In this document: one piece after another, positions 8,498 to 29,392 of the stretch
Position numbering within the stretch: the first letter of the stretch is position 1
How the letters are laid out: each line of letters opens with the position of its first letter
Origin: Opitutales bacterium
GTDB taxonomy: Bacteria; Verrucomicrobiota; Verrucomicrobiia; Opitutales; JABSRG01
Direction of reading: 5' to 3'
NCBI GenBank assembly: GCA_049599475.1
Contig: JBMYOQ010000038.1
Coordinates: forward strand, 1-37,654
DNA: 37,654 bases
Position numbers and translations under genes: made by a program
The notes under the pieces: model-generated
Seen by the model: only the letters and a program-made list of their open reading frames with translations
Databases searched by the model: none
Told to the model about the DNA's origin: nothing

Positions 8498-10225
8498 GTG
8501 TCTCTCTCTAAAACACCTCATAGAAGGCTCAAATGGCTCACGGTGCTCAGTGTCATCTGCACGCTGTGTACGCAGCTGAATGCCGACTACAAGGACGCCA
8601 TTGGCTACACCGAGCTAAAAACTTATTTAGAGCTGCGAGGCATCGAAGTGCCCAATGGCAACGGGATCAAGGTGACTCAGGTAGAGGCATCCACAAGCCA
8701 AGGAGACACCCCAGCCTACCTGCCCGACACCACAAGTAACGAATTCTCAGGCAAAACCATCGTCGATTTGAGCCCTGGGGGCGATATTTCGGGCCACGCG
8801 ACGAACGTCGGTAAACTTTTCTTCGGCAACGAGACCTCCGTTGCCCCTGGGATCACCGATATCGATACCTACGAAGCCAACGACTTCCTCAATGTCCAGG
8901 GCTGGGCCACCACGCTCGAGCCCCCTATCGAGACCAGCAGTGTCCAAAATCACAGCTGGGTCGCGCAGGAGATCGACGACGCCGTCGAGTCGCCCATTCA
9001 AAATCTGATTATGGATTATGCGATCCAGAGGGATGACTTTCTCCTCGTAGCTGGCTTGAATAACGGGTCCGGCAAAGAAATACCCGATCTTTACGCCCAT
9101 CTGTGCAACGGTATTTCGGTCGGACGCGCAGACGGCAATCACAGCAGCGGAAACACGCAAGACATCTATCTGCCCGGACGCACAAAGCCAGAGATCGTCT
9201 CCGATGCCTCTGCTACCAGCAATGCGACTCCCCAAGTATCGGCCGCAGCCAGTCTTATTTACGACATGGCCAACGACACGATCGGCCATCGCTCAGTTAA
9301 GGCAATCCTCCTCGCTGGCGCAAATAAAGAAGCCTTCGCGGATTGGGACCAAACCATATCAAGACCGCTTGACGAGACATATGGTGCAGGCCTTCTCGAC
9401 ATTTTCGCCTCTTATCAAATTTTAGCCGGCGGGAAACAAGCACCTGGAGCGATCACCGATAGCTACGGTTGGAACCTAGACACCTTGGCCAGCAATAGTT
9501 ACCACACCTACACATTCACGGTCCCCCAGGGTTTTGAGCTGCGCAACCTATCGATACTCCTTACCTGGGATATCGTGGTGACAACTTTTCCCGAACAGGG
9601 GGCCATTTCAGGCGACCTCGCAGACATGGCCCTCTACCTAAACGAGGGCGAAAATAGCCTCCAGATCAGCGATAGCATGGTCGACAACGTCGAGCACATC
9701 TGGCGCGGCTCAGGCGTAAGTCTCCCCGCCGGCCAATATTCGATCACAGTCAGCACAAACGAAGCAGCGACCTACGCTCTCGCCTGGCGAGGCGACCTCT
9801 ACCAGGGCTACGAGCTTTGGCAGTCCATTGCATTTTCCCCGGAAACACCGACCGAGGATCAGGATAGGACAGACGACCCAGATAAGGATGGCATCGTTAA
9901 TCTACTCGAAATGGCCCTGCTCACGGATCCGGAAAACCATCAACTCGGAGTCTTACCCTATCAGATCACGTCCATATCTGACGGAGACACCTACCAAGAG
10001 CTGGGAGTCAACATCCCCACACATTTAAACGACCTTAGCTATACCGCAGAGACAGCCACCGATCTACTGGGCATCTGGAGTAGCGACCCCGCCGATGTAT
10101 CCCTGGTCGAGATCCTCCCAAGCGCAAATGGCTTCGAACAATACATCTTCCGCCGCACCCTCCCGAGTGAGAGTGCAGAACAAGCATTCTTGCGCCTGAA
10201 AGTCGAAGAGACAGTCGAGCCGTAA
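8498..10225 (+). CDS. Secreted S8 (subtilisin-like) peptidase with C-terminal Verrucomicrobia-type surface domain
   Basis: Signal peptide. Catalytic-site-like segments VTQVEA, SGHATNVG, VAGLNNG, KPEIV, ATSNATPQVS, KAILLAGA, YGAGLLD. Tail carries DDPDKDGIVNLLE and ends FLRLKVEE. Confidence 0.8.
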   Translation: MSLSKTPHRRLKWLTVLSVICTLCTQLNADYKDAIGYTELKTYLELRGIEVPNGNGIKVTQVEASTSQGDTPAYLPDTTSNEFSGKTIVDLSPGGDISGHATNVGKLFFGNETSVAPGITDIDTYEANDFLNVQGWATTLEPPIETSSVQNHSWVAQEIDDAVESPIQNLIMDYAIQRDDFLLVAGLNNGSGKEIPDLYAHLCNGISVGRADGNHSSGNTQDIYLPGRTKPEIVSDASATSNATPQVSAAASLIYDMANDTIGHRSVKAILLAGANKEAFADWDQTISRPLDETYGAGLLDIFASYQILAGGKQAPGAITDSYGWNLDTLASNSYHTYTFTVPQGFELRNLSILLTWDIVVTTFPEQGAISGDLADMALYLNEGENSLQISDSMVDNVEHIWRGSGVSLPAGQYSITVSTNEAATYALAWRGDLYQGYELWQSIAFSPETPTEDQDRTDDPDKDGIVNLLEMALLTDPENHQLGVLPYQITSISDGDTYQELGVNIPTHLNDLSYTAETATDLLGIWSSDPADVSLVEILPSANGFEQYIFRRTLPSESAEQAFLRLKVEETVEP

Positions 10226-21090: not shown

Positions 21091-21165
<75 letters not shown>

Positions 21166-22542: not shown

Positions 22543-22548
22543 CACCAT

Positions 22549-22720
22549 TCCCCTGCAGCGTACGTGACCTATCGTGTTCTTTCCTTATGCTTCTTAATAT
22601 CGGGGATCAGCCCCTCCCTGTGGAAGTCACGCCGTAAACCGGAAGACCGAACTAGGGAGGAAGATTCCCACCTGAAAATTCCAGGTCAAAGAACACACCC
22701 TATACGGCGCATGCGGGGCC
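22549..22720 (+). ncRNA. ssrS: 6S RNA (probable)
   Basis: ~170-nt rod. 5' CCCCTGCAGCGTACGT pairs with 3' TACGGCGCATGCGGGG, GTGTTCTTT pairs with AAAGAACAC, there is a large central bubble and an inner CTCCCT/AGGGAG stem, and a T-tract follows. The ends resemble typical 6S termini. Confidence 0.8.
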
Positions 22721-22765
22721 CTTTCTTTTTTGTAGGTGAGTACGGATGAAACACAGATCCGGCCT

Positions 22766-26518: not shown

Positions 26519-26604
26519 CATGAATATTTTCCGCAAATATCAATTCTTCGATTGACAGAATTTTTCATTCACCTATCAAGACAGACGATCTAACCAAAAG
26601 AATT

Positions 26605-26724
26605 ATGAACTGCTCAATCACAACCCGACTTATTATGCCAGAATATAAGAATACACACACAGTACTCTCAGGCGGCATCAACAACCGGGCAGTTCAAGGA
26701 CGCAACAACTTTGAACTAGAATAA
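26605..26724 (+). CDS. Putative 39-aa leader peptide of an attenuator
   Basis: MNCSITTRLIMPEYKNTHTVLSGGINNRAVQGRNNFELE*. Lies downstream of TTGACA(26552-26557) and ends 24 nt before a terminator hairpin. Confidence 0.55.
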   Translation: MNCSITTRLIMPEYKNTHTVLSGGINNRAVQGRNNFELE

Positions 26725-26748: not shown

Positions 26749-26785
26749 AAGCCCGGTAGCACAACGCTTCCGGGCTTTTTGTTTT
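26749..26785 (+). terminator. Intrinsic terminator / attenuator in the slipin leader
   Basis: AAGCCCGG-t-AGC acaac GCT-t-CCGGGCTT followed by TTTGTTTT. Confidence 0.75.
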
Positions 26786-26916
26786 CCGCCGCTCAAAAGT
26801 TTAAGGGTGCCCTTCTCACCGGACCTCAGAAGGTAAAACGTCTCGTAAATGGCGTCCAATCCACAGGTGTCTGCACATGTGATAGGGGCGACTGTACCCA
26901 ATTCAGCGGAAAACAA
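26779..26916 (+). ncRNA. Candidate structured RNA 1 (four-way junction inside an 11-bp stalk)
   Basis: TTGTTTTCCGC/GCGGAAAACAA stalk, GGGTGC/GTACCC stem, hairpins CCTTCT/AGAAGG and ACGTC/GGCGT, and a long third arm 26856-26886. Confidence 0.5.
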
Positions 26917-26983: not shown

Positions 26984-27087
26984 GGTCACGTACTTCGGAG
27001 TGCGATGTAATCGACGTTAGCAACAATCCGTTCTTCAGAAGTTACATATTCAATGAGGTTTCTAAGAACGCACCCGAACACGTGGCC
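26984..27087 (+). ncRNA. Candidate structured RNA 2
   Basis: GGTCACGT..TTCGG.GTG pairs with CAC.CCGAA.ACGTGGCC, enclosing the long hairpin 27029-27070. A T-rich tract follows. Confidence 0.45.
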
Positions 27088-27207: not shown

Positions 27208-28313
27208 ATGAACCTACTACTATTCAAGTATATACGTGTTCCATACGAACACCTGGGCTTGAAGTTCAAAGAAGGTCAATTCATCGGATTGATTCGTCCT
27301 GGGAGCACGTGGGTGTTCGATCCATTCAACAGGATCGTCATCAAGGTGCTCGCTCAGACCGTACCCAGGATTGACCTACACGAACCCAAGCTTAAACAGC
27401 TAAAAGACCACCCAGAAACCGCGACACTCGCAGAGTTTGTCGATCTTAAAGACAACGAACGCGGCCTGGTGTGGTACGACGATCGATTTCGAGGTATCTT
27501 GAGACCCGGCACTTATGGATATTGGACAAGCCGTTCCAAAATCTGCATCGAAACGATCCCAATCGAAACAATTCGATTCACTCACCCTGAGTTCGATACC
27601 ATTACGCGGCACCCGGATGCACAGCATGCTCTGGACGTGAAAAACGTCCCGCAAGGCCATGCAGGAGTTCTCTTCATAGATGAGCGCTACTCTGGCCAAC
27701 TCAATCCGGGGCGATACGCATTCTGGCGCGACTCAGGATCCGTAAAACTCCACATCTATGAACTCAGAGAAAATGTCTTGGAATACCAGGATCCAGAGAT
27801 CCCGACAAAGGATAGAGTCAACACCAGCATAAAAGCTGTAGTGACTTTTCAAATCGAAGATCCCTCAAAACTGGCAGAGACGACAACCGATTCAGAGCGC
27901 GTGCTTCGCCGCGAACTTCAGCGATCTCTTCAGTCAGCCGCTAGCTCAAAAACTCTCGATGAATTGCTTTTAGGTAGGTCCATCATTTCGACTCATGTCT
28001 TCAGCAAGATCAAAGAGAGCATTCAACACTACGGCATCCGGATCATAGATCTTAGAATCCAAGAAATTAAAATATCTGAAAAAGAAATGGGCCTCTTAAA
28101 CCAAACGAAGGGGCCTTCTGAAACCGCTCAGGCAGGCGGCTTCACGCGTCGGGAAGACACGGCAACTATGCAAAGTTAGCTCAAGCAGAGCAAACCTAGC
28201 GGAAACCGTGACTTCTGCGACTCCACGGACTCTAGTTCGTGGGAAAAACAAGCAAGGGCGCACATCTGCAAATCATCGTTGGTGATGGGCAGACACTCAC
28301 CATGCGCCGTTAA
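27208..28313 (+). pseudogene. Slipin (SPFH/band-7) family gene with degenerate C-terminus
   Basis: Repeated 'GL.F..G.F...L.PG.Y..W' slipin N-terminal units and an SPFH core ending RREDTATMQS*(28179). An out-of-frame remnant P*LLRLHGL*FVGK..LQIIVGDG continues to 28313. Confidence 0.7.
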
Positions 28314-28329
28314 AAACTCAACTAAACCG

Positions 28330-28365
28330 AATGCTTCGGAGACCAACGACTCCGGAGCATTTTCT
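28330..28365 (+). terminator. Hairpin (possible terminator or RNA-stability element) between slipin and the next gene
   Basis: AATGCTTCGGAG/CTCCGGAGCATT 12-bp stem (one G-U), followed by TTCT. Confidence 0.45.
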
Positions 28366-28393
28366 ATCATCCCGGCCCGGAGGGCATCCGTAT

Positions 28394-29392
28394 ATGAATA
28401 TCGAAGATATTAATTTTATTCGCGGCTGCCTTCCTCGCGGCCGCACAAAATTCTTAACCTTCAAAGACCAATATGCACCAACGCTCTTGTCATGGAAAAT
28501 CGGAGATAATCGCATCCCTGTTTCACAGCTCAAGTCACACCCAGCATTTACCCATTTATCCAAAAAGCCAATCGTCCAAGACCTCATCAAGATCAATGGC
28601 GGTCGCGATGTATCCAGCGAAACACTCAATGTTTGGCCAAACTTCAAGACCGTTCACGCATTTCGGCTAACCCTGGATCAATGGGGCGATAGTCTTTCAG
28701 CAAATAATTACTGGAACCAGACTTCTCGCCGCGGGCACAATCTAGTGCTTCAGCTAAACTTCCCCAAGAGCCACGGTTCCGAATACCGCAAGCTCGGCAA
28801 TGACGACTCGGACCCCTGCGGCTTCATCTACGATAGTCACCCAGTTAAAACTGAAAGTGAATACACGATGGCATGGTCGCGGATCGACCTGGACCTCGAT
28901 GCGGGCGTCGCCCTTATCGAAGAAATTCAAAACGATTGGTTACGCGAAGCGAAATGGTTGTATCAGAATCTCAAAAACAGAATCGAAGCGAAAAAGATAA
29001 CGCCCTGGAATGACTGGGGTGACACTTATGTGCGTAATATCCTTGCATATTACGAGACTCATATCGCGCCACTCGAATCTATTTGGGATGAAGCTACACT
29101 GCTCGCAGCGCTTCACCTCATCCGCAATGAGCTAGGAATACACCGCGTATATTACCACACTTGGGAGACAGGAAACTGGTTCAAACGCATCGGAAACACC
29201 TACACACCTCCCAAGTCGATATACACGGCACTTCCACGTAAGTTCGGATTCAAGAAGGCGAGTACCGGCCCCGGATTCATACTCCGGGATAAAACAAATC
29301 GTCGCAGGCTGAAGGCCTTCTACCAGGGACGCCAAAAGCACTCCTGGTGGTATTACGACCTATCTCCAGTCGACGAACTTCAAAGCAATTAA
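28394..29392 (+). CDS. Conserved-looking hypothetical protein (QTSR.G.NLVLQLNF / AWSRIDLD / IEEIQNDW motifs)
   Basis: Intact ~332-aa ORF (ATG 28394; the track start 28331 lies in the hairpin). Motif-dense, but function not assignable. Confidence 0.75.
   Translation: MNIEDINFIRGCLPRGRTKFLTFKDQYAPTLLSWKIGDNRIPVSQLKSHPAFTHLSKKPIVQDLIKINGGRDVSSETLNVWPNFKTVHAFRLTLDQWGDSLSANNYWNQTSRRGHNLVLQLNFPKSHGSEYRKLGNDDSDPCGFIYDSHPVKTESEYTMAWSRIDLDLDAGVALIEEIQNDWLREAKWLYQNLKNRIEAKKITPWNDWGDTYVRNILAYYETHIAPLESIWDEATLLAALHLIRNELGIHRVYYHTWETGNWFKRIGNTYTPPKSIYTALPRKFGFKKASTGPGFILRDKTNRRRLKAFYQGRQKHSWWYYDLSPVDELQSN

Follow-up and report, generated by a model that had tools for sequence, protein, structure and literature searches.

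A pseudoknotted RNA family at the head of tRNA operons in Opitutales and phages, a candidate processive-antitermination element

An RNA element upstream of an SPFH-domain gene in an Opitutales bacterium is, on comparative evidence from its homologues, a real RNA family missing from Rfam 15, with a well-supported fold. The element was analyzed in a contig of 37,654 nucleotides (37.6 kb), referred to here as the window, and the features of the locus are listed in Table 1. The initial annotation of this DNA had proposed an unannotated structured noncoding RNA that fits no known RNA family, and both proposals were borne out. Homologues with covarying stems were found (66 distinct copies with compensatory changes), and Rfam returned nothing on the element when the window and 10 homologue loci were searched at gathering thresholds and at E ≤ 10. 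Rfam and ARAGORN also gave no match at its coordinates in the window. No description of the element was found in the open literature; subscription journals and supplementary catalogues of candidate RNAs lay outside this scope, and an earlier unnamed listing is possible.

The 66 copies were collected from GTDB genomes, JGI metagenomes, and IMG/VR by pattern and model searches. They form four subgroups: the window's own bacterial subgroup (18 copies), an Opitutaceae-type subgroup (7), and two phage or phage-like subgroups (23 and 18), which include metagenome contigs without formal viral classification. The set was defined by a regular-expression filter requiring at least four of the five core pairs and a 2-bp apical stem and, therefore, conservation of the core is partly built in. 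The copies are related by descent, so the counts given here overstate, and relatedness of the sequences inflates the structural counts. A 67th copy, in genome G361 (L473), lies outside the set. It stands behind a leader ORF and a terminator, has no tRNA in the 1.5 kb downstream, and is followed by a small membrane-like ORF and then by an ORF that resembles a sigma factor by eye.

The pattern scan of genomes gave 102 matches, of which 14 were genuine; the other 88 were dropped as chance matches, as were all but 3 of 63, all but 1 of 120, and 3 of 17 further matches. Pattern matches without the helix and hairpin were dropped in other scans, and weak covariance-model matches (L377-L381, L486-L489, and L491) were also attributed to chance, e.g. 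coding sequence or antisense tRNA. All genuine genome copies with a given taxon were from Verrucomicrobiota (10/10), seven of them from Opitutales or taxa within it. Model R1 detected a genuine copy in 7 of 150 other genomes of the same order. Outside the order, the element was not found in the 401 genomes sampled from its own phylum, nor in 151 Planctomycetota-centred and 151 Bacteroidota-centred genomes, where the single weak match was an antisense tRNA. One phage record with the element is a T4-like myophage by gene content. Two phage variants, used as blastn queries, had no match among 50,697 annotated phage records, and tblastn of phage records against the window's own genome was uninformative about the host.

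As read from covariation, the family fold opens with a 5′ H-type pseudoknot. A very small hairpin comes next, separated from the pseudoknot by the conserved linker AACG, and the fold is completed by the helix CGUCC/GGGCG, which carries a conserved 4x4 internal loop. The pseudoknot fits 55 of 56 distinct upstream segments, for 48 of which 5% or fewer of 60 shuffles were as good. Compensatory changes were seen in both of its stems, with stem 1 occurring as GGU/ACC, GGC/GCC, GCC/GGC, and GCG/CGC, and a covariation test on 13 sequences counted 25 double-change cells (0/500 shuffles as high). The core helix (26853-57/26886-90) has all five pairs in 60 of the 66 copies, and its three outer pairs covary, reading CG/UA/GC, GC/AU, and UG/UA/CG. 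When the entire family structure was scored on 28 aligned sequences, 95.8% of cells were paired and 65 double changes were counted, with none of 500 shuffles as high; the covariation score was 0.571 compared to 0.183 in the shuffles. The 3′ part of the fold was ambiguous until variant copies were compared. Columns of the linker and the A-rich hairpin are invariant or near-invariant in alignment A5, where they are partly fixed by the search patterns, and the 4x4 loop (AAWC/AKAG) is constant in 66/66 copies, mostly as a result of those patterns. One copy (L385) has an extra hairpin in pseudoknot loop 3; the 205 nt available there contain a short ORF and no tRNA.

Table 1. Features of the locus and of the surrounding window (positions in the window).
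Feature	Positions	Strand	Basis or remark
Possible sigma-70-type promoter (putative)	26552..26579	+	TTGACA at 26552, -10-like hexamer at 26574; consensus scanner made no call
Leader ORF, 39 codons, no single-amino-acid run	26605..26724	+	Translation
Candidate antiterminator strand inside leader ORF	26684..26690	+	Complementary to terminator 5′ arm, 7 pairs
Intrinsic-terminator-like hairpin and U-tract (attenuator)	26750..26783	+	Hairpin -18.6 kcal/mol
Outer stalk 5′ arm, 11 bp, optional, subgroup-specific	26779..26789	+	Pairs with 26906..26916
H-type pseudoknot	26806..26833	+	Stem 1 26806-09/26817-20, stem 2 26811-16/26828-33
Pseudoknot loops	1-nt loop between stems; loop 26821-27	+	Family fit
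Single-stranded AAACG linker and 2-bp A-rich hairpin (26841-42/26851-52)	26834..26852	+	Alignment columns
Core helix CGUCC/GGGCG	26853-57/26886-90, within 26853..26890	+	Covariation
Conserved 4x4 internal loop	26858-61/26882-85	+	Alignment
Variable apical hairpin	26862-81	+	Alignment
Outer stalk 3′ arm; no boxA core in stretch	26906..26916	+	Pairing
Second conserved hairpin unit, probably a decayed tRNA	26996..27075	+	Folds with paired ends
SPFH/Band-7 gene	27208..28179	+	Pfam Band_7 E 5.5e-26; likely start 27208, not 26920
353-aa protein, last gene of operon	28331..29392	+	No Pfam/NCBIfam match
6S RNA	22547-22723		Rfam 74.9 bits
tRNA-Met(CAU)	21091-21165

The element had initially been drawn as a four-way junction, or cloverleaf, enclosed by a perfect stalk and possibly mimicking a tRNA. 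The stalk is present: by direct reading, 26779-26789 and 26906-26916 are perfectly complementary over 11 bp, and they form the single perfect 11-bp inverted repeat in the window with arms 50-200 nt apart. The named helices are also all in the sequence and able to pair, namely GGGTGC (26805-10) with GTACCC (26894-99) plus A, CCTTCT with AGAAGG, and ACGTC with GGCGT. Covariation gives a pseudoknot and an internal-loop hairpin instead of the cloverleaf. CCTTCT/AGAAGG was confirmed, as pseudoknot stem 2, but the other two helices were unsupported by homologues. The acceptor-like stem is paired at 6/6 positions in 1 of the 18 subgroup copies (the window) and at 1-5 of 6 in the others, and its 5′ strand is pseudoknot stem 1 across the family. 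The ACGTC/GGCGT arm is fully paired in 40 of 66 copies and broken in 26, with zero compensatory changes; with 79% paired cells and zero double changes, the arm did no better than shuffles. The absence of T-loop and D-loop motifs had been correctly noted, as tests for tRNA features and with tRNA models were negative in the window and at the homologue loci. The tRNA mimic itself was not upheld, given no conserved acceptor stem, no T- or D-arm, and no tRNA model match. YrlA Y RNAs are tRNA mimics in rtcB operons, and the element resembles them in being a noncoding RNA in an RtcB-linked operon. This candidate was rejected: RF02553 was silent on the element in the window and at 10 homologue loci, with a weak match falling on neighboring tRNAs; T- and D-arms are lacking; and PF05731 (TROVE) was not found in the window's own genome, which is 96.6% complete.

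Constrained folds, with the pseudoknot stem left out of the energy, gave -40.5 kcal/mol for the cloverleaf and -41.7 kcal/mol for the family structure. Since these energies are nearly equal, the homologues alone decide the choice. The unconstrained minimum free energy structure of the 138-mer is not the cloverleaf. Folding better than shuffles was found for the plus strand of the 138-mer (z -2.48; 2/200 shuffles equally good), but the minus strand did nearly as well (z -2.19). The stalk extends to 9-14 pairs, with compensatory changes, in 11 of the 18 copies of the window's subgroup. At least nine Watson-Crick pairs were found in none of the other 48 copies and, because the stalk is missing there, the proposed release of the RNA from a processing stalk is not a general rule.

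The position claimed for the element, directly 3′ of an attenuator-like terminator, holds in the window. Immediately upstream, 24 of 25 bacterial copies and 16 of 41 phage-type copies have a terminator-like hairpin. The claim that the RNA is made only on read-through agrees with this arrangement in the bacterial copies but not with the phage copies, many of which are closely preceded by a promoter-like hexamer. Overall, a terminator-like or -10-like site is directly upstream in 60/66 copies, with the caveat that -10-like hexamers are common in AT-rich DNA. Upstream tRNAs were found in 7/66 copies, ending at least 57 nt before the conserved linker, and in none of the rest; in 3/66 the tRNA is within 300 nt, each time with a -10-like hexamer between. 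Same-strand tRNAs follow downstream in 59/66 copies, and five of the other seven end within 261 nt of a contig edge. In the window, its orthologue, and G361, no tRNA was called nearby, and there the element precedes protein genes. The copies L384 and L394 share one phage contig, at a distance of about 4.3 kb. A repeated promoter-like motif was seen between the leader terminator and the element in L264, L269, and L016, possibly a phage promoter that bypasses the attenuator.

The leader ORF of the window shares 95 of its first 117 bases with the same-genus orthologue, and short leader ORFs before the terminator were judged by eye to be present in other copies as well. The 39-codon ORF is likely a ribosome-stalling sensor; together with the terminator, and without amino-acid-specific codon runs, it suggests a general ribosome-stall attenuator. 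The terminator (26750-26783) keeps 33 of its 34 bases in the orthologue and gave a weak match to Trp_leader (E 0.31), and a simple terminator scanner made no call there. The putative antiterminator strand in the leader ORF is suggestive only, since 3.5% of shuffles match its 7 pairs and most other copies were not significant. In the orthologue, 85 of 86 core bases of the element are kept and the perfect stalk is lost. The same layout of leader ORF and terminator heads arrays in relatives and phages (L016, L264, and L269).

A blastn search of the window's own genome with the leader region found one clear paralogue, on contig C86 (E 0.019). This operon (C86 8790-13449, L002) consists of a leader ORF, a terminator, the element, three atypical tRNAs, an SPFH gene, a 260-aa gene, and rtcB. 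Because the paralogue has the full tRNA-slipin-rtcB layout, the locus in the window is probably a tRNA-array/RNA-repair operon in reduced form. Between the element and the SPFH/Band-7 gene, which is of the slipin type, the window has only some 290 untranslated nt. Its protein aligns over 2-323 with the paralogue upstream of rtcB on C86. Compared to the orthologue, the second hairpin unit (26996-27075), which received no tRNA call, keeps 67 of 80 bases; the corresponding figures are 80 of 132 bases for the spacer ahead of the SPFH gene and 60% for its protein. Of 20 bacterial loci tested, 11 have a slipin homologue following the array, and a homologue of the 353-aa protein follows slipin in loci L078 and L005. 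One of the C86 tRNAs has a 6-nt anticodon loop, and ARAGORN assigned the anticodons AUU and AUG; more unannotated hairpins are present at about 9590-9810. In arrays L009, L010, and L078, the tRNAs are interrupted by palindromic repeat insertions and by a GxxExxY-like ORF.

A boxA core was found behind many of the copies. Exact GTTCTTT occurs 6-16 nt behind the core helix in 36/66 copies compared to 26 of 12,602 random windows (0.2%). By subgroup, the counts were 7/7, 11/23, 18/18, and 0/18, the last being the window's subgroup, whose best partial matches reach 2-6 of 7 bases (3 of 7 in the window). In one of the phage subgroups, base pairing can place the motif in a hairpin. The same core is found as GTTCTTTGAAA 119-147 nt before the 16S rRNA in 5/5 genomes of the same order; the element was not seen in the five rRNA leaders read. 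GTTCTTTGAAA is close to the Bacillus boxA that binds NusB (PMC13753749). According to PMC13753749 and PMC12360218, boxA is a recruitment site for NusB-S10 and shields the transcripts of rRNA and CRISPR loci against Rho. The host genome encodes Rho and NusB.

We give an even chance to the interpretation that the element acts in cis, as nascent RNA, in processive antitermination, like put, EAR, and rrn boxB-boxA. A ribosome stalled on the leader ORF would cause the terminator to be bypassed; the element, folding first past this checkpoint, would then bind polymerase or a Nus factor. NusB-S10 would be loaded at boxA where boxA survives, and polymerase would go on to reach slipin and rtcB across kilobases of untranslated tRNAs. 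Such read-through would be needed when impaired translation no longer protects the transcript against Rho. The module was probably acquired by large phages to serve tRNA clusters of their own. An antiterminator would have to follow the regulatory terminator at the earliest possible point. The occurrence of the element in a single order among the bacterial genomes sampled fits the need for a host-specific surface. In the window, where the RNA core is kept but the tRNAs and boxA have apparently decayed, the element would need to function in the absence of boxA, in the manner of put. A count of terminator-like sites over 42 arrays (63.6 kb) gave a weak signal of 16 sense compared to 1 antisense, many of them tRNA 3′ arms followed by U-rich spacers. 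A gene for RNA-polymerase beta or a NusG-family protein was not found in 5 incomplete phage records. For LoaP, PMC12691694 describes a leader hairpin that recruits a NusG paralogue.

Several observations count against antitermination. The window's own subgroup is without the exact boxA core (0/18), and the first position could have been inherited from one ancestral array. PMC12360218 assigns boxB-like hairpins a minor role in the rrn antitermination of E. coli. Moreover, boxA and the element may be two independent leader features, because the array of L005 (G003) has a boxA-like motif without the element. Upstream of slipin, that locus contains two tandem leader ORF-terminator units and three atypical tRNAs.

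Very few cis-acting RNAs that modify RNA polymerase are recognized (put, EAR, boxA), and each shares some properties with the element. HK022 put is described in PMC9378689 as an RNA of about 70 nt just behind phage promoters that binds beta′. Like put, the element measures about 70-90 nt, has two structural domains, stands in many phage copies just behind a promoter-like hexamer, and is a candidate for cis action on the elongation complex. The two are set apart by description, since put consists of two stem-loops and a triplex and binds E. coli beta′ (PMC9378689), whereas the element combines an H-type pseudoknot with a 4x4 internal loop, also occurs on bacterial chromosomes behind attenuators, and often precedes boxA. 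The rrn boxB-boxA region (PMC13753749, PMC12360218) is similar in that it, too, places a structured RNA before boxA where a long untranslated operon begins, and the boxA core, where present, is identical to that in the rRNA leaders of relatives. Unlike in rrn, the upstream structure is far larger and conserved in sequence, and the window's subgroup lacks boxA. For the EAR RNA of Bacillus eps operons, a role in cis against the distal terminators of a long operon has been proposed (PMC7858274), as is proposed here. In that account, EAR sits inside a protein-coding operon, between its genes 2 and 3, whereas the element heads operons. At E ≤ 10, the element in the window and at 10 homologue loci matched no Rfam family, EAR-type models being covered if there are any. 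If antitermination is correct, it would explain how kilobases of untranslated tRNA and repair genes are transcribed in bacteria and phages with translation blocked. The element offers a 90-nt construct with natural compensatory variants.

Another explanation, which we regard as unlikely, is a new class of small self-cleaving ribozyme that would cut the leader off the polycistron and leave 5′-OH and cyclic-phosphate ends. RtcB ligates ends of this type, and rtcB is part of the paralogous operon. The compact size, the pseudoknot, and the invariant unpaired nucleotides of the linker and internal loop would suit a ribozyme, as would the theta (minimal HDV-like) ribozymes, small pseudoknotted RNAs that adjoin tRNAs in phage tRNA regions (PMC10879173). 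Theta ribozymes have a nested double pseudoknot and a cleavage site at the tRNA 3′ end (PMC10879173). In contrast, the helix order of the element differs from the nested double pseudoknot of HDV-like ribozymes, and the element stands upstream of tRNAs rather than abutting their 3′ ends, with no tRNA 3′ end within 5 nt. At E ≤ 10, no Rfam ribozyme family matched in the window or at 10 homologue loci; the fold corresponds to none of the twister, pistol, hammerhead, hairpin, and HDV-like topologies, which had no Rfam support either. In many phage copies, the stretch from hexamer to element is short, leaving little to remove. A protein-free catalyst also has no need to stay in one order, and the boxA core would be left unexplained. 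Should the element be a ribozyme nonetheless, it would define a new class. Slightly short of an even chance is given to a new class of nascent-RNA device, common to Opitutales chromosomes and large T4-like phages, that is either a means of termination-proofing polymerase for tRNA arrays with no dedicated protein or a new-fold ribozyme wired to RtcB repair.

The alternative closest to the initial annotation is a trans-acting small RNA excised through the outer stalk, serving as a decoy for a toxin ribonuclease or as a ligand of slipin or another operon protein. The paired stalk in 11/18 subgroup copies and the keeping of the core after tRNA loss favor this possibility, as does the proposal in PMC8421152 that L-array tRNAs are nuclease sponges. 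A phage homologue region was found in 22 RNA runs, and the element is among the deepest bins in several sets of RNA-run contigs, a weak sign since strains collapse on conserved segments. Contigs from 8 RNA runs cover the element plus upstream genes without back-joints at the element, and DNA origin is possible; no transcript ends were visible in the contigs of these 8 runs. We find a trans-acting RNA quite improbable: the 48 other copies have no stalk, tRNA and YrlA features are absent, TROVE/Ro60 was not found in the 96.6%-complete genome, and no slipin turned up in the vicinity of those Opitutaceae-type copies that were tested. It would also have no reason to come first after each promoter. 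The poorest prospects are those of a shield at the 5′ end, in which the fold would block 5′-3′ or 5′-end-dependent decay so that the tRNAs mature. The compact H-type pseudoknot at the front and the near-5′ place in phage transcripts would fit such a role, but bacterial copies lie about 200 nt behind the likely promoter, a roadblock needs no invariant loop or linker bases, and boxA is again unexplained.

Long tRNA arrays linked to rtcB have been described as the Anabaena trn operon and L-arrays, which are induced by translational stress and occur also in Verrucomicrobia (PMC8421152). The arrays headed by the element share the tRNAs and the link to rtcB. L-arrays are controlled by direct repeats in the promoter, whereas the arrays studied here are apparently controlled by the leader ORF, the terminator, and the RNA (PMC8421152). 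The words "ribozyme," "ncRNA," "Y RNA," and "GOLLD" do not occur in the main text of that article. In a phage-like metagenome contig (L256, 1647-2005), the element lies directly before tmRNA and tRNA-Asp genes.
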